Below, piece by piece: positions 4,611-28,048 of a DNA stretch of 64,000 bases; positions within the stretch are counted from its first letter, which is position 1; every line of letters starts with the position of its first letter. Where the stretch lies: the NCBI GenBank assembly GCA_965250285.1, contig OZ252299.1:5095966-5159965 (forward strand), written 5' to 3'. Position numbers and translations under genes: made by a program. The notes beneath the pieces were generated by a model. That model was not told the origin of the DNA and searched no databases. It saw nothing but the letters and a program-made list of their open reading frames with translations. Origin of the DNA: Myxococcota bacterium (GTDB lineage Bacteria > Myxococcota_A > UBA9160 > UBA4427).

Positions 4611-6074
4611 TCAACCGACGCTGCCTTCGAGACTGACCGAAAGCAGATTCTGGGCCTCGACGGCGAACTCCATCGGCAGCTCGCGCAAGACCTCCTTGCA
4701 GAAGCCGTTCACGATCATCGAGACCGCATCCTCTTCGTCGATGCCGCGCTGGCGGCAATAGAACAGCTGGTCTTCGCCGATCTTCGAGGTCGTCGCTTCG
4801 TGCTCGACCGTGGCGCTGCTGTTCTCGACTTCGAGGTAGGGGAAGGTGTGCGCGCCGCACTCGTCGCCCAGCAGGAGCGAGTCGCACTGCGAGTAGTTGC
4901 GGGCGCCCTCGGCCTTCTTGCCGATGCGCACGAGGCCGCGATAGCTCTGCTCGCCCTGCCCCGCCGAGATGCCCTTCGAGATGATCGTGCTCTTCGTGTT
5001 CTTGCCGAGGTGGATCATCTTCGTACCGGTATCGGCCTGCTGCTTGTTGTTCGTCATCGCGACCGAATAGAACTCGCCCACCGAGTCGTCGCCCTGCAGG
5101 ATGCAGCTCGGGTACTTCCAGGTGATCGCCGAGCCCGTCTCGACCTGGGTCCACGAGATCTTGCTGCGGTCGCCGCGGCAGGCTCCGCGCTTGGTCACGA
5201 AGTTGTAGATGCCACCCTTGCCGTCCTTGTCGCCCGGGTACCAGTTCTGGACGGTCGAGTACTTGATCTCGGCGTCGTCGAGGGCGACGAGTTCGACCAC
5301 CGCGGCATGCAGCTGGTTCTCGTCGCGCATTGGCGCGGTGCAGCCTTCGAGGTAGCTGACGTAGCTCGCCTCTTCGGCGACGAGCAGGGTGCGTTCGAAC
5401 TGGCCGGTGCCGGCCGAGTTGATCCGGAAGTACGTCGACAGCTCCATCGGGCAGCGCACGCCCTTGGGAATGAACGCGAAGCTGCCGTCACTGAAGACCG
5501 CGCTGTTCAGACATGCGAAGAAGTTGTCGCTGTAGGGGACGACCGAGCCGAGGTACTTCTTCACGAGCTCGGGGTGATCCTTCACTGCCTCGCTGAACGA
5601 GCAGAAGATGATGCCCTGCTTCTCGAGCTCGTCCTTGAACGTGGTGGCGACCGACACGCTGTCGAAGACCGCATCGACGGCGACCTTGACGCCCGAGAGC
5701 CGCTTCTGCTCGAGCAGCGGGATCCCGAGCTTGTCGTAGGTCGCGAGCAGCTCGGGGTCGACCTCGTCGAGGCTCTCGAGCTCTTTCTTCGGCTTCGGCG
5801 CCGAGTAGTAGATGATGTCCTGGTAGTCGATCTTGGGATAGTCGACCGCGGCCCAGGTCGGCTCGTTCTCGGTCTCGAGCATCTCGAGGAACCGGCGCAG
5901 CGCCTTCAGTCGGAAGTCGAGCAGCCACTCGGGCTCCTCCTTCTTCGCGCTGATCAGCCGAACGACGTCTTCGTTGAGCCCGGGCGGGGCCTGGTCGGCC
6001 TCGATGTCGGTCACGAAGCCGTACTTGTATTCCTGATTCGCGAGCTGCTCGAGCTCGGCGTTCGACTCGGACAT
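4611..6074 (-). CDS. sufB: Fe-S cluster assembly scaffold SufB
   Basis: 487 aa with typical SufB sequence throughout (YKYGF..., [46 protein letters not shown]). Confidence 0.95.
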
Positions 6075-6610
6075 CAGTTCATCTCCTCACCCGCGCTCGG
6101 GGCGGGGTCGTCGGCGGTGGGGACGTGGGCGCTCGAGCCCGGGATCTGGATCAGCGCGAGCGGGGCGTGCTGGGCCGAGAAGGCCGGATTCACGAGATCG
6201 GCGAGGCTGACCTCGCTGAGGGCGTTCTCGACGACGCGGTTGATGACCTGCCACGGCGAGCGCACCGCGCAGGTGCTCTCGTGATCGCAGGCGCCCGGAT
6301 CGACGGCGCACTGGGTCAGGGCGACCGGACCGTCGAGCGCCGCCACGAGCTCGGCGACGCTCAGGTCCTCGGGTCGGCGCGTCAGGGTGAAGCCGCCCTT
6401 CGCGCCCCGGTGACTCTCGAGCACGCCGCCGCGCGCGAGCTGCTTGAGCACCTTGCTGACGACGGGCAGCGGCAGGTCGACCTGGCCGGCCAGTTCACGT
6501 GCGTTCTGCGGCGGCTGCGGCTCGGCGCTCTCTCCGCGCGCGCCGCGCGCGCTCGCGAGGTGGGCGAGCAGCACGATCCCGTAGTCGGTCATGCGGCTGA
6601 GTCGGAACAT
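6074..6610 (-). CDS. Rrf2-family (IscR-like) transcriptional regulator, first gene of the suf operon
   Basis: N-terminal Rrf2 wHTH ([19 protein letters not shown]...[29 protein letters not shown]). Cys triad [14 protein letters not shown] suited to an Fe-S ligand set. Its stop overlaps the sufB start (TGATG). Confidence 0.85.
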
Positions 6611-6792
6611 CGTTGCCTCGTGCGCTGCGCGTCTCGAGCGGTCACCGCCGGCGTCTCGGCGTGGCCGCTCGAGCGGTAATGGGTCCGTCTGGATCGCTCG
6701 ACCAGAGGCCCGAGCCGGGCGCTCTCGATCGAAGGGGGCGTCGCCGAGACCCGGGTACCCGGCGTGGCGGGCCGGGGTCTCGTGCGGCGCAG

Positions 6793-6849
6793 ACGATATC
6801 GGACCAGATTACTCCTGTAAATATCGGACCATTGCTGTACGAATTACTC
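6793..6849 (-). promoter_or_regulatory. Putative suf promoter with duplicated Rrf2/IscR-like operator boxes
   Basis: Locally AT-richer patch. On the minus strand, TTTACA (6821-6816), a 17-nt spacer, then TATCGT (6798-6793). On the plus strand, ATATCGGACCA occurs twice (6796-6806 and 6821-6831) and ATTACTC twice (6808-6814 and 6843-6849). Site 1 matches about 17 of 25 positions of the IscR type-1 consensus as I recall it. Confidence 0.35.
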
Positions 6850-6931
6850 AGATGCAGCAAGTCGCCGCGAGGGATCGCGATTCGCAGAATTTCCTGCGGG
6901 GAAATCGAGCGATCGGCGCCGCGTCCGACGC

Positions 6932-8233
6932 TCAGACGACCTCGCCGACGCCGCTCCACCGCGCGAGGGGCAGCAGCACTGGCTCGCCGTCGTGGGGCCA
7001 GTCGAGCGGGGGGGCCTGCATCTGCCCGAGCGGGCAGACCCGCGTCGCGTCCAGCGCGGCGATCGCGCCGAGCGCGGGGTGGTCGCGTGCGTCGCCGTAG
7101 CCGGCGAAGCCCACGGTCGAGAGATGGCGGGCGACCGGCTCGACCGCTTCGGCCCAGGCCTCGAGGTCGACGGCCGGATGCACGCGGACGAATCGCCCGA
7201 GCGGGGCGCCCCGGAGCCCGGCTTCGTCCTCGAGGATCACGCTCCAGGCGGTGTCTTCGCTCGCCAGCACGCGCACCGAACGCCCGGCGGCCGCGCGCAT
7301 CGCCGCCTCGTCGCGCTCCCCCCGGATGCGTGCGCCGACGTCGGGCGAGACCGGGCCGCGCGGCATGTCGATGGCCAGCGCCTGCAGCACCTCGGCGACC
7401 CCTTCCGCGAACCGCTCGGCCGCGTGTGCTTCGCCCCCGATCACGTGGACGCAGATGGGAGACAGGCAGCCGGACTGATCCCAGAGCGCCACGTCGAGCG
7501 CGAAGTCTGCGGCGGCCTCATCGAGGGCACCGTCCCGGCAGCCGTTCGCGTCGACCACGGCGAGCGACAAGCGGTGGCCGTAGCCGACGAGGCGGTTCGC
7601 GGCACCGACGCGCGCGGCGATGTCGCGCAGGGTCGCGTCCGAACCGCTCGCGACGATGCACGGCGCGTCGAGGAATGCGTCGAGCGTCGCCGTGTCGTCG
7701 CCGTCGAAGTCGATCACCTCGAGGCACGCGCCGATCTCGGCGTCGACGTCCCGCAGACACTCCGCGACGAGCCGCGCGCTGATCCGGTCGCGCGACGCGG
7801 TCTTGGCCAGCACCGGTGAACGCACCAGCAGCGGCGTCAGGCAGCTGACCAGCGTCGGCATGGGGATGCTGCCCGCGAGCACGACGCTCGTCTGCGCGTG
7901 AGGCCGCAGCACGCGGCCCGCGCGCAAGGAGGGCCCGAGCTCGAGATCGACGAGCGCCCGGACGGCGTCGAGATCCCACCCGGCGAGCGCGAGCTCGAGC
8001 CCGGTGGCGATGGTCGGCGCCGTGAAGCCCGTCGCCTCGGGCAGGGCCTCGACGAGCCGGGCCCCCTCGTGATGCGCCGCGCTGCGAAATCGTTCGAGCA
8101 CCTGCCCGACGATCCCGACCACGTCTTCGAGCGGGCGGGCGAGCAGCGCAGTGCGTGCTTCGGCGAGCCGGCCGGTCGCTTCGTGCACGCGGTCGACGCC
8201 CGCGTCGGGCCACTCGATCGTGAGATCACCCAT
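6932..8233 (-). CDS. LuxC-like acyl-CoA/acyl-protein reductase (aldehyde-forming)
   Basis: 433 aa. Contains VVLAGSIPMPTLVSCLTPLLVRSPVLAKTASRD and LWDQSGCLSP (aldehyde-dehydrogenase-like catalytic Cys), as in LuxC-family reductases. Lies directly downstream of a LuxE-like gene. Confidence 0.7.
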   Translation of the reverse strand: MGDLTIEWPDAGVDRVHEATGRLAEARTALLARPLEDVVGIVGQVLERFRSAAHHEGARLVEALPEATGFTAPTIATGLELALAGWDLDAVRALVDLELGPSLRAGRVLRPHAQTSVVLAGSIPMPTLVSCLTPLLVRSPVLAKTASRDRISARLVAECLRDVDAEIGACLEVIDFDGDDTATLDAFLDAPCIVASGSDATLRDIAARVGAANRLVGYGHRLSLAVVDANGCRDGALDEAAADFALDVALWDQSGCLSPICVHVIGGEAHAAERFAEGVAEVLQALAIDMPRGPVSPDVGARIRGERDEAAMRAAAGRSVRVLASEDTAWSVILEDEAGLRGAPLGRFVRVHPAVDLEAWAEAVEPVARHLSTVGFAGYGDARDHPALGAIAALDATRVCPLGQMQAPPLDWPHDGEPVLLPLARWSGVGEVV

Positions 8234-8403
8234 GCGGGTTCGTCTCTGCAGCTCGTCGCATCGTGCGCTCAGCCATGCGAGTTCGTCCCTGCAGCTCGTC
8301 GCATCGTGCGCTCAGCCATGCGAGTTCGTCCCTGCAGCTCGTCGCATCGTGCGCTCACCCATGCGAGTTCGTCCCTGCAGCTCGTCGCATCGTGCGCTCA
8401 CCC
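8226..8403. repeat. Four head-to-tail copies of a 43-bp repeat spanning the luxE-like/luxC-like junction
   Basis: Minus-strand unit is GCGCACGATGCGACGAGCTGCAGGGACGAACTCGCATGGSTGA. Copies lie at 8397-8355, 8354-8312, 8311-8269 and 8268-8226, with 0-3 mismatches. The plus-strand CATG landmarks at 8231, 8274, 8317 and 8360 give an exact 43-nt period. Confidence 0.95.
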
Positions 8404-9558
8404 AAGGCGGGGCGCCTCGCTCGGCGCGGCGTCGAGCATCAGGTCGGCGGCGATCGAGCAGCCCCGTGCTTCGGCGCCGGGCTCTCGGCCGAGCACCTCG
8501 AAGCCACGCCCGAAGCGCCCATCATCGGTCTCCGCATCGATCCAGCGCCCGAGGTCGGCGGTCTGGATCGCCGCGACGCTGCCCGTATTGGCCAGATCGT
8601 GAATGACGACGAGCCCGGGGGCGTCGCCTTCGACGTCGCGGCCGGTCTCGGGGTCGACGAGGCGCACGCGCGCCCACGGTGGCCCGAGCTTGCGGCGGCG
8701 GCCGACGTCGTCGACCAGCACAGAGTCGTAGAACTGGCTGCCGAGCTCGGTCATGCCGTACTGGTTGACGATCTGCGTGGGGGCGATGCCGAACGTCTCG
8801 TGCAGTGCGGAGTAGAACGTGTCGCGTGAGATCTCGCGCGAGCGGCCCTTGAAGCCGCCGGTCTCCATGATGCGCGAGCCGGGTGCGCATGCGAATCGAT
8901 GACCGCGTTCGGCGCACGCATCGAGCGCATGCACGAACCCGAAGGCGGTGCCGCAGAGGGCGACCGGCTTCTGCGCATCGCCCGCGCGAGCGAGGGCGGC
9001 GATCAACCCGTCGACGTCGAGCTCACCGTCCGTCACGTCGAAGCCGCTGTGTGCGTCGCCGACGTCGTCGATCAGGCAGCCGAACATGTGAGAGAGCGAC
9101 GAGTCGTCGAGCTCGTCTGGCGAGGGCGCGAGCACGCGCAGCGTCATCCGCTCGCGCGGGTTGCGCCCCAGGTCGGGGAAGAGCAGCTGCGCGAGCGTCG
9201 GTGCGAGCGAGGCCTCGTAGAGCGCGAGCGTGTCGAGCAGCAGGGTGCCCCGGCGTGCGCCGGCCGCCGCGCTCGTTCCGCTCGTGCGAAACACGTGGCG
9301 CGTGGCGTCGCTCGGAAAGCAACGCAGCTCGAGCTCCTTGAACGCGCCCGTTGGCACCGCGGGCACGTCGCGCCACGATGTGACGCTGCCCGGCGTCGCG
9401 CCACGGGCCTCGCAGAAGCGGCCATACGGCGCGTTGGCTTCGTACTGAAACGCGAACAGGTCGAGCGACAGCGTCTCGAAGCGCGGATCGTCGGCTCGCC
9501 ACTCGGGCTCGCTCATCCAGGTGAGCAGCTCGCGTTCGATCGCTTCGCGCGTGCTCAT
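8398..9558 (-). CDS. LuxE-like acyl-protein synthetase (adenylate-forming)
   Basis: The real part of the 583-aa track ORF starts at MSTREAIERE (ATG 9558-9556). Motifs FRTSGTS and METGGFKGRSREI resemble LuxE/PaaK-type adenylating enzymes. The start overlaps the aminotransferase stop as ATGA. Confidence 0.7.
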   Translation of the reverse strand: MSTREAIERELLTWMSEPEWRADDPRFETLSLDLFAFQYEANAPYGRFCEARGATPGSVTSWRDVPAVPTGAFKELELRCFPSDATRHVFRTSGTSAAAGARRGTLLLDTLALYEASLAPTLAQLLFPDLGRNPRERMTLRVLAPSPDELDDSSLSHMFGCLIDDVGDAHSGFDVTDGELDVDGLIAALARAGDAQKPVALCGTAFGFVHALDACAERGHRFACAPGSRIMETGGFKGRSREISRDTFYSALHETFGIAPTQIVNQYGMTELGSQFYDSVLVDDVGRRRKLGPPWARVRLVDPETGRDVEGDAPGLVVIHDLANTGSVAAIQTADLGRWIDAETDDGRFGRGFEVLGREPGAEARGCSIAADLMLDAAPSEAPRLG

Positions 9559-10871
9559 GCCGATCCCTTCGAGGCGCTGCGAATGAGTCGCGCGAGCACG
9601 TCGACGGCGAAGTCGAGCGCCGGCTCGGTGATGCAGAGTGGGGGCGTGAGCGAGAGCACGCGCCCGCCCTCGCCCGAAGGCAGCAGGATCAAACCCTGCT
9701 CGAGGGCGCGCTGGCAGACGTCGAGGGCGAGCTCGGGCGCGCTGCATTCGATGCCGATCATCAATCCGCGTCCGCGCACCTCGTGCACGCCATCGTCGCC
9801 CGCGAGGCGCGCACCGAGCTGGGCGAGCGTCGCGGTGCCGACGCGGGCAGCGTGCTCGACGAGCCCCGACGCTTGGATCACTTGCATCGAGGCGAGCGCT
9901 GCTGCGCAGCTCGCCGGGTGGCCGAGGAACGTCTGCGTGTGCAGCGCTTCGCCGGTCGACGCGGGCCAGGCTTCCATGACGCGAGCGCGCCCGAGGCAGG
10001 CCGAGATCGGCATACCCGAGGCGAGGCCCTTGCCGACGCAGAGCAGGTCGGGCACGACGCCCTCGTGATCGCAGCCAAACCACGTGCCGGTGCGACCGAA
10101 GCCGGTGTAGATCTCGTCGGCGATCAATAGCAGGCCGCGGTCGTCGCACATCGTGCGGAGCGTGCGAAGAAAGCCGTCCGGCGGGACGCGCTCGCCGCCG
10201 CGGCCCTGCACCGGCTCGACCAGCACGGCGCCGATCTCGCGGTGCGCATCGAGCTTGATTCGGGCGTCTTCGGCGTCGCCGAAGCGGGCGAAGACCGTCT
10301 CATGTGGCAGGCGCGCGCGGAACGGCGCGCGAAAGTCGTCCCGGTGCGTCGCATCGAGTGCGCCGAGGGCGAGGCCGTGATAGCCGCCTTCGAATGCGAG
10401 TACGCCGACGCGACCGGTCGAGAGCGCGGCGGTCTTGAGCGCCGTTTCGACCGCGTCGCTCCCCGAGGACGACAGCACGCCGCGCGCCGACTCGCCGCCG
10501 GGATAGCGAGCGCACAGCGCTTCGAGCAGCTCGACCTTGACGGCGGACGGATGGACGTCGCCCATGCCGTGCAGCAGCTCGGCCGACTGGCGCGTGATCG
10601 CTTCGACGACGGCCGGGTGGGCGTGCCCGACGTTCGAGACGCCGAACGCGCCGCCCAGGTCGAGGAAGCGGTTGCCGTCGACATCCCACACGTTCACGCC
10701 CGACGCGCGCTGCCAGAAGATCGGCGCCGGCGGACCGAGATGCGTGACGTTGCGGCTCTCGACGGCAGCGAGCCGCTGCGCAAGCGCCTCTGAACGAGGG
10801 CCGGGAATGGCCGTCACGAGGTCGGGCAGCAGCGGTTCGGGCCACCGAGGGCTGGGGTCGGGGGTCGACAT
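9555..10871 (-). CDS. Class-III (omega-type) PLP aminotransferase
   Basis: 438 aa. Contains GGYHG, LLIADEIYTGFGRTGTWFGCDHEGVVPDLLCVGKGLASGMP (PLP Lys region) and THLGHPASCAAAL, typical of the GabT/ArgD-like fold. Confidence 0.85.
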   Translation of the reverse strand: MSTPDPSPRWPEPLLPDLVTAIPGPRSEALAQRLAAVESRNVTHLGPPAPIFWQRASGVNVWDVDGNRFLDLGGAFGVSNVGHAHPAVVEAITRQSAELLHGMGDVHPSAVKVELLEALCARYPGGESARGVLSSSGSDAVETALKTAALSTGRVGVLAFEGGYHGLALGALDATHRDDFRAPFRARLPHETVFARFGDAEDARIKLDAHREIGAVLVEPVQGRGGERVPPDGFLRTLRTMCDDRGLLLIADEIYTGFGRTGTWFGCDHEGVVPDLLCVGKGLASGMPISACLGRARVMEAWPASTGEALHTQTFLGHPASCAAALASMQVIQASGLVEHAARVGTATLAQLGARLAGDDGVHEVRGRGLMIGIECSAPELALDVCQRALEQGLILLPSGEGGRVLSLTPPLCITEPALDFAVDVLARLIRSASKGSA

Positions 10872-12632: not shown

Positions 12633-13058
12633 ATGAGCAGCGTGCGGACAACGATCGGTCGAGGCCTGGGCTTTGCTGCGCTGGCCTGCGCGCTCGTGCT
12701 TGCGGTGGGCGGGGTGACGGCGGCGCGCGCCGACGAGGCTCCGGCCGAGTCGAGCCCGCCCGCGCCCGATGCGAGCTTCGAGGGCTTCGCCGATCACCTC
12801 GAGCGCGAAGGACGTCCCGTCGTCGAAGACGCGGGGCCCACCTGCCAACCCGGCGCGAACGATCCGGTCGCCGTCGAGATGGCCCACCGCCGCGTCGTGG
12901 CCGAGCTGCAGGCGCGCCTGCAGGCCGAGGCGCGCGCACGCGCCGCCGAGCACGGGGGCGACCCCGAGATCGTGGTGCTCAATGGCCGGGGCTACAACTA
13001 CCGCGCCCCCACCCCCGGCGAACAGCCGCCGGCGCCGGTGACCCCGCCCCAGGACTGA
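12633..13058 (+). CDS. Secreted hypothetical protein
   Basis: N-terminal signal peptide (GLGFAALACALVLAVGGVTAARA). GC3-rich frame. No recognisable domain. Confidence 0.5.
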   Translation: MSSVRTTIGRGLGFAALACALVLAVGGVTAARADEAPAESSPPAPDASFEGFADHLEREGRPVVEDAGPTCQPGANDPVAVEMAHRRVVAELQARLQAEARARAAEHGGDPEIVVLNGRGYNYRAPTPGEQPPAPVTPPQD

Positions 13059-13093
13059 TCTCGCCCGACGGCGGCGCCATCTCCGTGCGCGGC

Positions 13094-13232
13094 CGCGGCA
13101 CCCTCTTCGCGCCGAGCTGATCTGCGTCTGCGTGCCCGCGGCACCCTCTTCGCGCCGAGCTGATCTGCGTTTGCGTGCTCGCGGCACCCTCGTCGCGCCG
13201 AGCTGATCTGCGGCTGCGTGCCCGCGGCCGCC
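13094..13232. repeat. 3.2 copies of a second, unrelated 43-bp tandem repeat
   Basis: Unit is CGCGGCACCCTCTTCGCGCCGAGCTGATCTGCGTCTGCGTGCC. Copies lie at 13094-13136, 13137-13179 and 13180-13222, plus a partial copy. The array starts 36 nt after the stop of the 12633-13058 gene and lies about 160-300 nt upstream of the histidine kinase start. Confidence 0.9.
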
Positions 13233-13394: not shown

Positions 13395-15932
13395 ATGGAT
13401 CCGGTTTCCACCCTTCGAGTCCGGCGTCTGACCGGCACGCTGGCTGCGCTGTGGGCGATCTCAGCGGTGGCCATGTCGGCCTTCGCGCTGATCCCTCGCG
13501 CCGATACGCCCTCGCTCCCCTTCAGCAGCGCCTTCGTGGCCGGCGTGGCCTTGATCCACGCCGTCGGACCCGACGCACGCGAAGCGGGCATCGAGCCCGG
13601 CGACGAGTGGATCTCGATCGACGGTGAGCCGGTCGTGCGGATGATGGATGAAGGGCGGGGCGCGCTCTTCCCGGGGCGCGTGAACGTCTACGAGGTCGAG
13701 AAGCAGGATGGCCGGGTCGTCAAGGCCGCGCTCTCGCCCCAGCCACCGGGCGCAAACGAGCGGCCCGGCGATCTGCTGCTGCACTTCGCGCTGCTGATCG
13801 TCGCGTCGCTCTACGTGACGGTCGGTCTCGCGGTGTGGTGGAGCAAACCGGGGACGGCCGAGGCGTGGGCGCTCCTGCTCTTCTGCTCGACGATGACGGT
13901 GCTGATCTCGACGACGATTCGCGCCGACGAGGTGCCGTGGTCGTTCTCGCGCGTGCTCGCGAACCTGCCCTTCATCGGTGCGACGACGTTCCACCTGTTC
14001 ACGACCTATCCGATCGAGCCGCCCTGGATCGTCCGCTATCGACGCACGCGCGCGGTGCCCTATCTGCTCGCATTCGCGATCTTTCTGGGCGTGGTCGGCG
14101 TGCGCGCGGGCACCATCGACGCTCGACTGATGGCATCGATCGCGGGCTTCTACGGCGTCGGCGTCGCGCTGGCCTCGGTGGCGGTGCTCGCGGCGCAGCG
14201 GCGGCGCGCACACGACGCGGGGATCGGCGAGCGCGTCGACCTCATGTTGCTCGCGGGCGTCGTGAGCTTCGTGCCGATGCTGCTGATGATCGGCATGGTC
14301 TACGTGCTGCAGACGCCGATCCCCTGGTACATGGCCATGCTCTGGGTGGGCTTCTTCCCGCTCGCGGTGGGCTACGGGATGCTGCGCAAGCAGCTCTTCG
14401 ACTTTCGCATCGTCGCGCGCTCGTCGGCCGCCTACGGCGCCGCGACCTTCACCATCACCGGTTTGTTCGCGTTCTCGATCACCTTCGCCGACGAGCTGAT
14501 CCAGACCTACGGCGTGAACGTGCGCAGCGTGCAGGTGATCCTGCTCTTTCTCGCGATCCTCGCCTTCAATCCGCTGCGCGAACGACTGCAGGGGCTGGTC
14601 GATCGCCTCTTCGATCGCGACCGCGCGCGCTATCGCCAGGCCGTGCGAGAGATCTCGGAGGCGATGGTGTCGATGCTGTCGCTGGGTGAGATCGGCGATC
14701 GCATTCTCGTCGCCGTGACCGACACCATGGGCGTCGAACGCGCGATGGTCCTGCTCTTCGACGAGAACGACAAGGTGCTGCGGCCGGCCGCGTGGCGCGG
14801 CGATTGGGACGAGCAGGACGTCCAGGCCGAGATCCCGAGCGAGCATCCGATCTGGAAGCACCTGTGGATGCGGCGCGAAGAGCTGATGCGCGCCGATTTC
14901 GACGACGAGCCCGACGCCGAGGCCCGCGAAGAGTGCTGGGACGTGTACGACACGCTCGAGGTCGAGCTGCTCGTGCCCATCCTCTTCGGTGTCGATCTGC
15001 TGGGGGTGATCGTCGTGGGGCGGAAGCTCTCGGGCGAGCGTCTGACGCCCGACGATCGACAGCTCCTGCGCACGCTCGCGAATCAGAGCTCGATCGCCAT
15101 CGAGAACGCCAAGGCGTTCGACGAGATCGCCAAGCTGAACGAATCGCTCGAGGCCCGCGTCGAGGAGCGCACCCAGGAGCTGCGCGAGACGCAGACGCAG
15201 CTGATGCAGAGCGAGAAGATGAGCTCGCTCGGTCAGCTCGTCGCCGGCGTCGCCCACGAGCTGAACAACCCGATCGGGTTCGTGCACGCCAATCTGCAGC
15301 TGCTCGACGAGTTCATCGAGAAGCTCGCGACGGCGCAGGCGTCGGGGGCCGACACCGAGCGGGTGCGCGAGGCGATCACCAAGCTGCTGACGCGCAGCCG
15401 CGAAGGCACCGAGCGCGTGAAGAAGATCGTGCAGGATCTGCGTACGTTCTCGCGCATGGATCAGGCCGAGAGCCAGATGGCCGATCTGCACGAGGAGATC
15501 GACCGGACGCTCGCGCTGATGGAGCCGCGGCTCAAGAACAAGATCAAGATCGACCGGCACTACGGCGACATCCCCGAGGTGCGCTGCTATCCGGGGCAGC
15601 TCAACCAGGTGTTCCTCAATCTGCTCATGAATGCCTGTGACGCGCTCGACGACACGGGCGGCACGATCCGCATCTCGAGCGAGCGCAGCGACCTCGGCGT
15701 GCGGCTCGAGTTCGCCGACGACGGGCCAGGGATCCCGATGCATGTCCAAAGCCGCATCTTCGATCCATTTTTCACCACCAAGGAGGTGGGCAAGGGCACG
15801 GGCCTGGGGCTCTCGCTCTCCCACGGCATCGTGGAGCGCCACGGCGGGCGCTTCCTGGTGCACTCGGAGCCCGGCGAGGGCGCGACCTTCGTGCTCGATC
15901 TGCCGCTCGACGCGGCGCCGGCGGCCGAATAG
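13395..15932 (+). CDS. Multi-pass membrane sensor histidine kinase with GAF domain
   Basis: H box HELNNPIGFVHANLQLL, N box LNLLMNACDAL, G boxes DDGPGIP and GKGTGLGLS. Preceded by a GAF-like segment, about 10 hydrophobic helices and a PDZ-like GIEPGDEWISIDGEPV segment. Confidence 0.9.
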   Translation: MDPVSTLRVRRLTGTLAALWAISAVAMSAFALIPRADTPSLPFSSAFVAGVALIHAVGPDAREAGIEPGDEWISIDGEPVVRMMDEGRGALFPGRVNVYEVEKQDGRVVKAALSPQPPGANERPGDLLLHFALLIVASLYVTVGLAVWWSKPGTAEAWALLLFCSTMTVLISTTIRADEVPWSFSRVLANLPFIGATTFHLFTTYPIEPPWIVRYRRTRAVPYLLAFAIFLGVVGVRAGTIDARLMASIAGFYGVGVALASVAVLAAQRRRAHDAGIGERVDLMLLAGVVSFVPMLLMIGMVYVLQTPIPWYMAMLWVGFFPLAVGYGMLRKQLFDFRIVARSSAAYGAATFTITGLFAFSITFADELIQTYGVNVRSVQVILLFLAILAFNPLRERLQGLVDRLFDRDRARYRQAVREISEAMVSMLSLGEIGDRILVAVTDTMGVERAMVLLFDENDKVLRPAAWRGDWDEQDVQAEIPSEHPIWKHLWMRREELMRADFDDEPDAEAREECWDVYDTLEVELLVPILFGVDLLGVIVVGRKLSGERLTPDDRQLLRTLANQSSIAIENAKAFDEIAKLNESLEARVEERTQELRETQTQLMQSEKMSSLGQLVAGVAHELNNPIGFVHANLQLLDEFIEKLATAQASGADTERVREAITKLLTRSREGTERVKKIVQDLRTFSRMDQAESQMADLHEEIDRTLALMEPRLKNKIKIDRHYGDIPEVRCYPGQLNQVFLNLLMNACDALDDTGGTIRISSERSDLGVRLEFADDGPGIPMHVQSRIFDPFFTTKEVGKGTGLGLSLSHGIVERHGGRFLVHSEPGEGATFVLDLPLDAAPAAE

Positions 15933-26081: not shown

Positions 26082-26720
26082 ATGATCGAGATGGATGACA
26101 TCCGAAGACGCCTGGCGGACTTCGACTCGGAGGAGATCGACACGACCGGTCGGCGCCAGGCGGGCGTAGCGCTGATCCTGCGTGAGCGCGACGCCGGCCC
26201 CGAGGTGCTCTTCATCGAGCGGGCGCGGCGGGCCGGCGATCCATGGTCGGGACACATGGCGTTTCCCGGCGGCCGGCTCGAGCCCCAGGATGAGCACATC
26301 CGGGCGACGGCAGAGCGCGAGACCACCGAGGAGATCGGGCTCTCGCTCGAGACGGCCGATCATCTGGGCCATTTGGGCGACGTGCTCGGCAATCCCCGGG
26401 TCCAGACCGATCTGGTGATCAGCGCCCACGTCTACCAGGTCGAGCCCGAGGTGCCGCCGCTCGTACTCGAGGCGAGCGAGGTCGCCGCGGCGCTGTGGTT
26501 TCCCGTGGCCGATCTGCATGATCCGGCCCGCCACGTGCACTTCGCGACGCCGCCGCTCGAGCGCTTACGTTTTCCGGGGATCGAGGTCGGTGTGCCCGAG
26601 CGGCAGGTCGTCTGGGGCCTGACTTACCGATTTCTCGACATCTTCTTCGATGCGCTCGGTCGACCTCTCCCCGATCGCTGGGGCGAATTGAACCGCCGCC
26701 AGGAGCGGTTTCGGTCGTAG
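26082..26720 (+). CDS. NUDIX hydrolase, CoA pyrophosphatase-like
   Basis: Nudix box GGRLEPQDEHIRATAERETTEEIGL, preceded by LFIERARRAGDPWSGHMAFPGG, which resembles the CoA-diphosphatase upstream motif. The start is at MIEMDD (ATG 26082). Confidence 0.85.
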   Translation: MIEMDDIRRRLADFDSEEIDTTGRRQAGVALILRERDAGPEVLFIERARRAGDPWSGHMAFPGGRLEPQDEHIRATAERETTEEIGLSLETADHLGHLGDVLGNPRVQTDLVISAHVYQVEPEVPPLVLEASEVAAALWFPVADLHDPARHVHFATPPLERLRFPGIEVGVPERQVVWGLTYRFLDIFFDALGRPLPDRWGELNRRQERFRS

Positions 26721-26955
26721 GGCCGCGGATGCTCGGCGTGGCCCGCGACGCTTTTCTTGGGCCGCGGCTCTTCTCTTGGGCCGCGACGCTTCGTGTGGCC
26801 CGCGGCGCTTTTCTTGGGCCGCGGCGCTTCGTGTGGCCCGCCGCGATTTCTTTGGGCCCGCGGCGCTTCGTGTGGCCCGCCGCGATTTCTTTGGGCCCGC
26901 GGTGCTTCGTGTGGCGCGCGGCGGTTTCTTTGGGCCCGCGGTGCTTCGACGCGGG
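26721..26955. repeat. About six copies of a ~39-bp tandem repeat (alternating 19/20-bp half-units) filling a convergent intergenic gap
   Basis: GCGGCGCTTC landmarks at 26821, 26860, 26899 and 26938 give a 39-nt period. Half-units alternate GCCCGCGGCGCTTCGTGTG and GCCCGCCGCGATTTCTTTGG. The array starts 1 nt after the Nudix stop and ends 8 nt before the YhhN stop. Confidence 0.9.
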
Positions 26956-26962
26956 GGTGGCC

Positions 26963-27643
26963 TCAGCTCGAGATCGGTCGACCGGCGACGACCGACAGCG
27001 CGAGGCCCACCTGACCGGCGTAGTAGAGCGGCAGCCCCCAGAGACTGCTCGCGGGGGATGGGTCGACGAACTGGCGTCGCGCGACCGCGAGGTCGGAGAC
27101 GCAGAAGAGCGTCGCCCCCAGCGCGATCGCGATCCCGCCCGAGCCGGGCTCGAAGCCGACCGCGAAGCTCGCCCCCATCGCGAGCGACTCCATCACCGAG
27201 ATCACGACCACGTACGCGATCACGGGCCCGACCATGTCCGGCGGGAGATGGGGCCGGAGCCAGCGCCAGACCCAGAACGCCACCGGTACCAGGACGGCGA
27301 TCGCAACGCCGACGGGTCGGCCCGCGATGCCGAGCGCGAGGAACGCCGCCGCGTAGGCGACGTGGCCGAGCAGAAAGCTGCCGAGACCGGCGAGAAAGAA
27401 CCGGGGCTGGTCGCCGGCCAGCAGGAAGACGTCGCCGAAGAAGCTCAGCACGAGTCCCGCGAAGATCAGGGGCCCGTACGTGTGACCGGGCTCGAGCGCG
27501 CCCATCCACACGGCCAGGACGAGAAAACCCACGCTGGCCAAGGGCTTGAAGACGATGCTGCCGCCGCGCAGATCCCTCATCTCGCTGATCACCAGCCCGG
27601 CTACGAGGGCGGCGATCAAGCCGATCGCGATCAGCCCGGTCAT
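26963..27643 (-). CDS. YhhN-family (lysoplasmalogenase-like) membrane protein
   Basis: 226 aa from MTGLIAIG. It has about 8 hydrophobic helices with the FFGDVFLL and LGHVAYAAAF motifs typical of YhhN. Confidence 0.8.
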   Translation of the reverse strand: MTGLIAIGLIAALVAGLVISEMRDLRGGSIVFKPLASVGFLVLAVWMGALEPGHTYGPLIFAGLVLSFFGDVFLLAGDQPRFFLAGLGSFLLGHVAYAAAFLALGIAGRPVGVAIAVLVPVAFWVWRWLRPHLPPDMVGPVIAYVVVISVMESLAMGASFAVGFEPGSGGIAIALGATLFCVSDLAVARRQFVDPSPASSLWGLPLYYAGQVGLALSVVAGRPISS

Positions 27644-28048
27644 GATTCGGACGCACGCTCTTCGCGTTCGGCTCGCGTGGGCTCGAAGCCGGTGCATCGG
27701 GCGACCGGGAGCGGCGGGTAGCGCGGATACCGCTCGTCTTCGTCGGCCCGGGCGCAGCGGTGGAACGTGCTGCCCTTCGCGCTGCGGTGGACGAGGCGGT
27801 GTGTACACGCGTGGCAGAGGCCCACGGTGTGTCTTTCTTCAGCGTCGCTTTCGCCGGACGAGATCGCCGTTGCCTCCGGGGCGGGGTCGGGGGAGTCTAT
27901 CGCGGTCGCGGTGCGGCGCGGTCGCGCGCCCGGCGGATGGCCGTGACCCGAAGCCGCGACGGGGCTCGGCTGAATGAACGCCGCAGCGGCCCGAGATCGA
28001 ACGAGAGAAGTCGAGACGCAAGAGAAAAAGAAGGAGTCCACCTCCGGC

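Follow-up and report, generated by a model that had tools for sequence, protein, structure and literature searches.

Tandem 43-bp repeats carry a chain of overlapping mini-ORFs across the luxE/luxC junction of a Myxococcota bacterium

Results and Discussion

The luxE/luxC junction and its tandem array

The window analyzed here, a 64,000-nt stretch of contig OZ252299.1 from a Myxococcota bacterium, carries a minus-strand operon of three genes, and between the second and third of these, which are luxE-like and luxC-like, lies a tandem array of four 43-bp units with a chain of short open reading frames (mini-ORFs) running through it. The operon begins with a class-III aminotransferase (9555..10871; Pfam PF00202, E=1e-97) and continues with a luxE-like acyl-protein synthetase of 386 aa (8398..9558; PF04443, E=6e-19) and a luxC-like acyl-CoA reductase of 433 aa (6932..8233; PF05893, E=2e-45). 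The TGA of the aminotransferase gene and the ATG of luxE overlap as ATGA at 9558-9555, and the same order of the three genes is also present in relatives. The LuxE C-terminus (...CSIAADLMLDAAPSEAPRLG, followed by the TGA at 8400-8398) ends at the same position as in relatives, while the LuxC N-terminus, MGDLTIEWPD, aligns with theirs under the conserved pattern M-G-[DE]-L-T-I-x-W-P-D, in which T5, I6, W8, P9, and D10 are invariant across the 11 sequences of our alignment A1. Because of this conservation, the ATG at 8233-8231 is secure as the luxC start. The window LuxC also has all of the residues that are invariant in the other 10 aligned sequences, and the gene is therefore intact, with no decay. 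One database protein is 100% identical to it and the next relatives are 79, 73, 73, 71, 70, 61, 61, and 59% identical; those further off are named "Myxococcota bacterium" or "Deltaproteobacteria bacterium".

The four units (8397-8355, 8354-8312, 8311-8269, and 8268-8226, together 8226..8397 on the minus strand) follow one another head to tail at a spacing of exactly 43 bp. Tandem Repeats Finder (TRF) delimited the array as 8217-8404, with a period of 43, 4.4 copies, 95% matches, and a score of 334. When read on the minus strand and compared in register with unit 2, unit 1 is identical at 42/43 positions and unit 4 at 40/43, with units 2 and 3 both at 43/43, and the 43-mers on either side of the array match the unit at 14/43 and 15/43. 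A 27-nt core of the unit occurs four times in the window when up to 3 mismatches are allowed, each time within the array, with 0 occurrences expected from shuffles. The differences between units are specific substitutions, comprising G/C at unit position 40 and two more changes in unit 4; the inner units are identical, and the outermost unit is the most diverged. Judged from the sequence, this variation fits what would be expected of a real array that has been homogenized in its center.

Each unit consists of gCgCACGAT, a 26-nt segment that we call S (GCGACGAGCTGCAGGGACGAACTCGC), and the octamer ATGGSTGA. The first nine nucleotides match nucleotides 9-17 of luxC (tCtCACGAT) at 7/9 positions. 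As a result, a 17-nt junction motif, [A/T]TGGGTGAnCnCACGAT, can be recognized five times at 43-bp spacing with four copies of S in between, and this fivefold motif extends 8 nt into luxE and 17 nt into luxC.

A chain of mini-ORFs with a common geometry

The last 8 nt of luxE, TTGGGTGA, hold a potential start codon as well as the luxE stop, as TTG (8405-8403) lies 5 nt upstream of the luxE TGA. Together with a GAGG (8418-8415) that resembles a Shine-Dalgarno (SD) sequence, this octamer makes up an apparently retained native luxC initiation site (8398..8418, minus strand) that matches the junction of L001, one of the related loci described below. ORF enumeration on the minus strand then gives four mini-ORFs. 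Mini-ORF 1 (8355..8405, MGERTMRRAAGTNSHG) begins at TTG 8405 or at the in-frame ATG 8390 and stops at TGA 8357-8355, 5 nt after ATG 8362. Mini-ORF 2 (8312..8362, MGERTMRRAAGTNSHG) ends on a stop that overlaps ATG 8319, mini-ORF 3 (8269..8319, MAERTMRRAAGTNSHG) on one that overlaps ATG 8276, and mini-ORF 4 (8226..8276, MAERTMRRAAETNPHG) on TGA 8228-8226, which overlaps the luxC ATG at 8233-8231 in the 8-nt, or -8, geometry. At all five junctions, from luxE/mini-ORF 1 through mini-ORF 4/luxC, the start thus lies 5 nt upstream of the stop on one strand. There are also alternative starts in a 4-nt (-4) geometry, at the GTG of GGGTGA (8401 and 8358), from which 29-codon ORFs run to the junction TGA two units downstream.

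Since 43+5=48 is divisible by 3, reading from one unit's ATG leads to the TGA of the following unit. Furthermore, as every unit brings its own start and stop and is complete in itself, and the period is 1 mod 3, the chain is kept at any copy number, and no selection would be needed to preserve it through expansion and contraction. A period of 0 mod 3 would instead extend the LuxC N-terminus in frame, which is likewise harmless. We also considered a phase-variable repeat, or contingency locus, which is ruled out because any copy number leaves the chain and both genes whole and there is no promoter-like site in the array.

Much of this arrangement had been put forward in an earlier note on the same DNA, which described four head-to-tail 43-bp repeats bridging the stop of a luxE-like gene and the start of a luxC-like gene, the last copy supplying the luxC start at ATG 8233. 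The TRF result and per-copy identities, the Pfam assignments, and the conserved LuxC N-terminus agree with it on these points, and the four mini-ORFs that it listed, as well as the overlap of each stop with the next start at an ATG 5 nt before the TGA, were all recovered by ORF enumeration. To these we add a first link, in which TTG 8405-8403, in frame with ATG 8390, shares the ancestral -8 overlap with the stop of luxE, so that the chain has no gap where it leaves luxE. The note also pointed to a 6-bp inverted repeat, ATGCGA/TCGCAT, within each unit; the repeat exists, but without any unusual gain in stability on folding: neither single units nor pairs of units nor the entire array were more stable than shuffles (z from +0.77 to -0.66).

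Initiation signals and RNA folding

For each start, we computed the energy of the duplex with the anti-SD sequence over the 18 nt upstream. The native site (GAGG-N9-TTG at 8405) has the strongest signal, at -8.0 kcal/mol, which is in the top 5% of the window background. The internal junction ATGs at 8362, 8319, and 8276 have AGGG 10 nt upstream and an energy of -4.8 kcal/mol, whereas the unit that feeds luxC has AGAG in its place, giving ATG 8233 an energy of -2.9 kcal/mol, equal to the background median. The luxC starts of relatives are mostly TTG or GTG with weak SDs, and weak starts of this kind are usual for genes that are initiated by coupling.

The luxC AUG also falls within the stem of a predicted RNA hairpin (8195..8244, minus strand; minimum free energy -25.2 kcal/mol, z=-1.82, 8/200 shuffles as good). 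The 5' arm of this hairpin comes from unit 4 and uses the T-to-C variant of that unit (CCCGC), and the prediction lends weak support to the idea that luxC needs coupling. A consensus scan found neither a sigma-70-like promoter nor an intrinsic terminator in the array, and the sole promoter-like site that it returned (6821-6793) is downstream of the array, ahead of rrf2-sufB. The -8 spacing is reported to be one of three enriched coupling geometries, with coupling that weakens as the distance between stop and start grows (PMC12548453), and for this reason ribosomes would be inefficient at crossing the 165 nt between the luxE stop and the luxC start in a single jump. As luxC also lacks an SD of its own and has its AUG in the predicted hairpin, we infer that serial termination and reinitiation, or serial unfolding, would be the most economical way to make LuxC.

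Several other classes of element were tried and rejected. A structured RNA or riboswitch was dismissed since there was no Rfam match and the folding values were those given above. A repetitive extragenic palindromic (REP) element or a MITE (a miniature transposable element with inverted repeats) was dismissed since folding was no better than in shuffles and no other copies were found in the window, and a clustered regularly interspaced short palindromic repeat (CRISPR) array since the units stand head to tail at an exact 43-bp spacing. Separately, the 3' end of luxE holds a 20-nt imperfect inverted repeat (8408-8427 / 8447-8466, 80% complementary, 19-nt loop). It covers the SD-like GAGG, and the native initiation site could be blocked by it at times when luxE is not under translation.

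Junctions of relatives and the origin of the repeat unit

All 8 readable junctions of the closest clade (LuxC 58-79% identical) have an 8-nt luxE/luxC overlap of the form NTGnnTGA without any repeat. The overlap reads cgccTTGGGTGAcctcacgatc in L001, gggcATGGGTGAtctcaccatc in L002, TTGAGTGA in L003, TTGGGTGA in L004 and L005, GTGGCTGA in L007, and GTGGGTGA in L077, and for the P0009 contig it is given by gene coordinates only. Among approximately 58 more distant metagenomic loci in which luxE and luxC are adjacent, the overlap is mostly the 4-nt NTGA. Leading up to the first TGA, the window reads cgccTTGGGTGA, exactly as at the junction of L001, and past the last TGA it continues with TCTCACGATCGAGTGGCCCGAC, the conserved luxC beginning, in which TCTCACGAT, directly after the last unit, corresponds to luxC codons 3-5 of the relatives. 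Because the relatives have a plain overlap at this place, the array is a lineage-specific expansion of 172 bp at an otherwise overlapping site.

The octamer and the nucleotides flanking it are thus recognizable in the unit as junction sequence, and the segment S can be compared with the ends of luxE genes. When anchored at the octamer, S aligns colinearly and over its full length with the luxE tail of L003 (GCGACGAGCTG--CAGGGACGA-ACTCG-C vs GCGACGCGCAGGCCCGGGACGAGCCTCGCC; p=0.0003 with 3000 shuffles, and p ~0.004 after correction for 14 anchored tests). Anchoring S to the L077 tail gave no match, and unanchored local alignment of S to the flanks and the relatives picked out only L003 (p=0.011). 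We found no source for S elsewhere in the window, where local alignment scores stayed within the shuffle null. As the LuxE tail following ...CSIAADLML is variable among relatives, it is plausible that a working luxE tail and an old copy of it would have diverged. We therefore conclude with moderate confidence, on sequence comparison, that the unit represents an old duplicate of the native segment at the junction, made up of the luxE tail, the octamer, and the first nucleotides of luxC. The exact unit pattern had no match in public genome and metagenome collections, from which the source locus is itself absent, and a scan of the genome collection with a LuxC peptide pattern gave 593 pattern matches, none of them a true relative.

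Junction duplications in other lineages

To see whether repeats occur at this junction elsewhere, we ran TRF over 77 related loci (348 kb, window excluded) and counted arrays with a period of at least 15 and a score of at least 100. Seven arrays were found, and two of the seven (in L010 and L025) lie exactly on the luxE/luxC junction. Arrays away from the junction cover 0.21% of the sequence, from which approximately 0.12 of the 58 junctions would be expected to be covered (Poisson P for two or more, ~0.007). In L010 (885-948), three perfect copies of the 21-bp ATGAGCGCCCGGGAGATCCGC start exactly on the ATGA formed by the luxE stop and luxC start. With a period of 21, the ATGs are in the luxC frame and the repeat becomes a threefold MSAREIR N-terminus of LuxC, and there are three TGAs in the luxE frame. 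L025 (2954-3028) has instead a 38-bp duplication (1.9 copies, 83% identity) in which the first ATGA overlaps the luxE stop and a mini-ORF of 13 codons (MTGVEFDRRRGAR) has its stop in the TGA of the second ATGA, the one at the luxC start. The same one-step relay is retained in L078-L082 (~1455-1510), whose LuxC is 87% identical to that of L025. Compared with L025, the 38-nt spacing shows 12/38 substitutions, no indel, and both ATGA overlaps intact. The mini-ORF (MTRFGDDRRKLVR) again has 13 codons, and these loci are identical to one another across five samples. The next relatives, at 66-69% identity, have a plain -4 overlap.

Two further loci, L071 (847-888; 38-nt spacing, 13 codons) and L017 (145-216; 68-nt spacing, 23 codons), have a mini-ORF reaching from the luxE stop to the luxC start. 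Neither spacer holds a detectable repeat, and an origin by duplication is thus unproven for both. The expansions in L010, L025/L078, L071, and L017 concern the same gene pair and the same site as in the window, but they differ from it in their periods (21, 38, and 68 nt), in their -4 geometry, and in having no homology to the 43-bp unit. L025/L078, L071, and L017 have a single step and L010 an in-frame N-terminal extension, in contrast to the four-unit array of the window.

None of the five junction expansions (0/5) has a period of the harmful class; three to four are of the relay class (the window, L025/L078, L071, and L017), and L010 is in frame. Selection for the relay geometry was rejected as a conclusion from these periods, as the statistic is not significant with all five counted ((2/3)^5 ~0.13). 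The overlapping junction seems to be permissive for tandem duplication, or a hot site of it, and the relay geometry looks as if it has been tolerated for long periods. Tandem duplications seem to survive at overlapping junctions because both genes stay whole and coupling can be carried across. With two further junction arrays in approximately 58 related loci, and a relay kept across 13% protein divergence, these observations suggest a route by which overlapping genes can become separated.

A different kind of spacer was seen in the distant relative L027 (2812-2905), where luxE, with a TAG stop, and luxC are 92 nt apart. Within this spacer, a perfect inverted repeat of 16 bp (GTGACGCGGCCGCGCC...GGCGCGGCCGCGTCAC) precedes a T-rich run, an arrangement that resembles a terminator or attenuator.

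Comparison with known systems

Leader ORFs that deliver ribosomes to a downstream gene are familiar from tap-repA of plasmid R1 and from synthetic bicistronic designs. Those systems have one evolved or engineered leader ORF, unlike the window, which has repeated, near-identical ORFs that come from duplication; bicistronic design and delivery by short ORFs are also mentioned in PMC12548453. The same review covers the -8 coupling class, citing Huber et al. 2019 and 2023. Exactly the NTGNNTGA motif of this class is found at the ancestral luxE/luxC junction and wherever unit meets unit in the array, but the known cases of -8 NTGNNTGA coupling are single junctions between two genes, while the window has five in series, four of which end non-genic 16-codon ORFs.

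The closest parallel is found in the variable-number tandem repeats of mycobacterial interspersed repetitive units (MIRU-VNTRs; Supply et al. 1997, Mol Microbiol 26:991). In mycobacterial operons, these form intergenic tandem arrays with units of 40-100 bp, and their small ORFs overlap the flanking stop and start codons, which has been read as keeping translational coupling (PMC12548453 and PMC3184786). For example, rnc and fpg are separated by a 6-bp spacer in non-tuberculous species, while in M. tuberculosis 358 bp of repeats reach up to the fpg start, and the length of these repeats correlates with expression (PMC2734929). The window resembles MIRU-VNTRs in having tandem 43-bp units between co-oriented operon genes, in having same-direction mini-ORFs that overlap the flanking stop and start codons, and in that relatives without the repeat have a junction of a few bp. 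On the other hand, MIRUs are a dispersed family with approximately 41 loci, are thought to be mobile, couple in the -4 geometry, and belong to Mycobacterium, whereas the unit described here is found at one locus in the 64-kb window, is apparently built from the junction itself, couples at -8, and comes from a Myxococcota-like host. The array is thus a MIRU-like operon minisatellite and not a new kind of element, and the earlier note's remark that it knew of no described precedent gives way to these mycobacterial examples, which fit closely. What is new here is a locally generated, -8, multi-step version outside the mycobacteria.

Possible explanations of the array

We consider it probable that the array is a lineage-specific minisatellite that arose through tandem duplication of the native 8-nt-overlap luxE/luxC junction, followed by amplification, and that it is tolerated as a MIRU-like structure. 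The earlier note had offered an expansion of the native stop/start junction as its alternative, and this is now the best-supported reading, given relatives without the repeat and a unit that holds copies of the junction. Under this explanation, the junction segment would have been tandemly duplicated within the aminotransferase-luxE-luxC operon, leaving two junction motifs 43 bp apart from which slippage or unequal exchange could amplify the array, each unit inheriting a start and a stop (ATG and TGA) placed as in the ancestral -8 overlap. Ribosomes would end luxE, or load at the retained SD/TTG site, and translate the five links serially, first the 16-codon mini-ORFs and then the hand-over to luxC. 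Terminating for the last time 5 nt beyond the luxC AUG, they would be delivered to, or would expose, an SD-less AUG in the predicted hairpin, whose 5' arm would be melted by the ribosome finishing mini-ORF 4. Coupling could in this way survive a 172-bp insertion, with LuxC yield probably lost at each step. That such a relay is in operation is plausible from the geometry, the missing luxC SD, and the predicted hairpin.

Several observations weigh against parts of this explanation. The homology between S and the luxE tail depends on one good match, to L003, which is not the closest relative, and the window's own luxE tail is a poorer match to the S of the last unit (p=0.006, lost on multiple-test correction). 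The search for further copies of the unit covered the 64-kb window, approximately 1% of the source genome, and a dispersed family is possible. The hairpin predicted around the luxC AUG folds only a little better than shuffled sequence, and relatives do not conserve it. As for the termination-reinitiation relay proposed in the earlier note, its geometry is intact and luxC has no SD of its own, but such a chain is a near-automatic result of duplicating a junction unit of 1 mod 3 length. Period length alone gives the relay geometry a prior of approximately 1/3, or 2/3 if an in-frame extension is counted as benign, and its presence therefore says little about selection. Five reinitiations in series could leave very little LuxC, and independent initiation or an undetected promoter may matter more than the relay. 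The promoter activity reported for the senX3-regX3 MIRU region of M. tuberculosis (PMC4213456) is a further caution against reading the mini-ORFs as a relay.

This last possibility can be stated as an explanation of its own, in which the array uncouples luxC, the units serving as a spacer with de novo loading (at a weak AGGGA or without an SD) or with an internal promoter, and the mini-ORFs being incidental. The senX3-regX3 example speaks for it, as does the reported drop in coupling efficiency with each step and with distance (PMC12548453), and the internal units do have a modest SD-like AGGG 10 nt before their ATGs. Nevertheless, we judge it unlikely, since the unit that actually feeds luxC has AGAG and a background-level energy, the array contains no match to a sigma-70-like promoter, the luxC AUG lies within the predicted hairpin, and the weak TTG/GTG starts of relatives are typical of coupling-dependent genes. 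A mobile MIRU- or MITE-like unit that inserted at the start codon, duplicated its target, and was then amplified would account for the 17-nt junction motif on both flanks of the array, much as a target duplication would, and MIRUs are reported to insert at start codons with short direct repeats and with ORFs that overlap their neighbors (PMC12548453 and PMC3184786). Yet the window holds no further copy at up to 3 mismatches and no significant local similarity, the genome and metagenome collections hold no exact match, the second 43-bp array of the window (13086-13228) is unrelated, the unit has no terminal inverted repeats, and S, the part of it that is not junction, resembles a luxE tail. We regard such an insertion as very unlikely. 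An assembly artefact, in the form of a collapsed or expanded repeat or a polishing error, has to be considered because tandem repeats are error-prone in assemblies, but it is the least credible explanation by far, as the units carry their own substitutions and the outermost is the most diverged, which is the pattern of a real array. In addition, the source contig, at 6.25 Mb, points to a long-read assembly in which reads would span 172 bp, and comparable junction duplications occur in independent assemblies, one of them identical in five samples.

Finally, the array could be a selected copy-number attenuator, or rheostat, in which every unit, through one more round of reinitiation, reduces the amount of LuxC relative to LuxE, and copy number is varied adaptively by populations. 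This explanation would profit from a chain that stays intact at any copy number by its geometry, and from the one-step relay of like logic that has been kept without indels between L025 and L078. Against it, all close relatives (8/8) manage without an array, and the collections hold one sequence of this lineage, so that no polymorphism is seen, the next relative being 79% identical in LuxC. The two other, unrelated intergenic minisatellites of the window suggest a mutational habit. In the fatty-acid reductase of Vibrio, LuxC and LuxE act in one complex and in equal amounts, which argues against a benefit of unbalancing them. In M. tuberculosis, expression correlates with how long the MIRU-VNTR upstream of fpg is (PMC2734929), and this favors a rheostat, which we nonetheless think distinctly unlikely here. 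A broader form of the idea would have junction duplication as a recurrent and selectively kept way for Myxococcota luxE-luxC operons, and perhaps all coupled operons, to insert relay mini-ORFs, the window array then being a copy-number-tunable attenuator that sets LuxC:LuxE. This form strikes us as equally doubtful.

If the chain works as the duplication-and-amplification explanation would have it, the locus is a natural construct with five identical -8 junctions in series. It would then be a substrate for measuring the efficiency of reinitiation per step and for telling apart the scanning and RNA-unfolding models of bacterial coupling. The junction arrays also suggest that no mobile element is needed for MIRU-like repeats to originate locally. 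Should the array be only a neutral expansion, it would still be of use as a VNTR marker and as a warning to gene callers.

Neighboring genes and other minisatellites

The synteny of the operon is kept between the window (6074-10871, minus strand) and the loci L002, L004, L078, L083, and L084, all of which encode the class-III aminotransferase, LuxE, and LuxC. After a gap, it continues with an Rrf2-family regulator and SufB/D, with a helix-turn-helix (HTH) gene in between in some relatives. The aminotransferase beside a LuxE/LuxC pair that resembles a fatty-acid reductase suggests an aldehyde-to-amine pathway in Myxococcota.

The window has two other sizeable minisatellites. One, at 13086-13228 on the plus strand, has a period of 43 bp, 3.3 copies, 92% matches, and a score of 244. 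It is intergenic, following a small proline-rich ORF (stop at 13056-13058) and ending approximately 165 nt before a gene for a GAF-histidine kinase (13395..15932), and its units contain GCTGATCTGCG, which resembles the upstream stop context GACTGATCTCGC. Kinship between these units and those of 8217-8404 was rejected, as cyclic and gapped comparison found no homology. The other, at 26739-26948 on the plus strand, has a period of 39 bp and approximately 5.4 copies, with a 19-bp sub-period also given, and is flanked by the stops of two convergent ORFs, one on the plus strand (ending at 26720) and one encoding a membrane protein (26963..27808, minus strand). Minisatellites away from the lux genes were also seen on the related Myxococcota-like metagenomic contigs of L025 (5146-5325; 45 bp, 4.0 copies, 97%) and L046 (5283-5587; 106/52 bp, 2-4 copies). 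Three sizeable intergenic arrays in 64 kb suggest that the genome of the window is minisatellite-prone.

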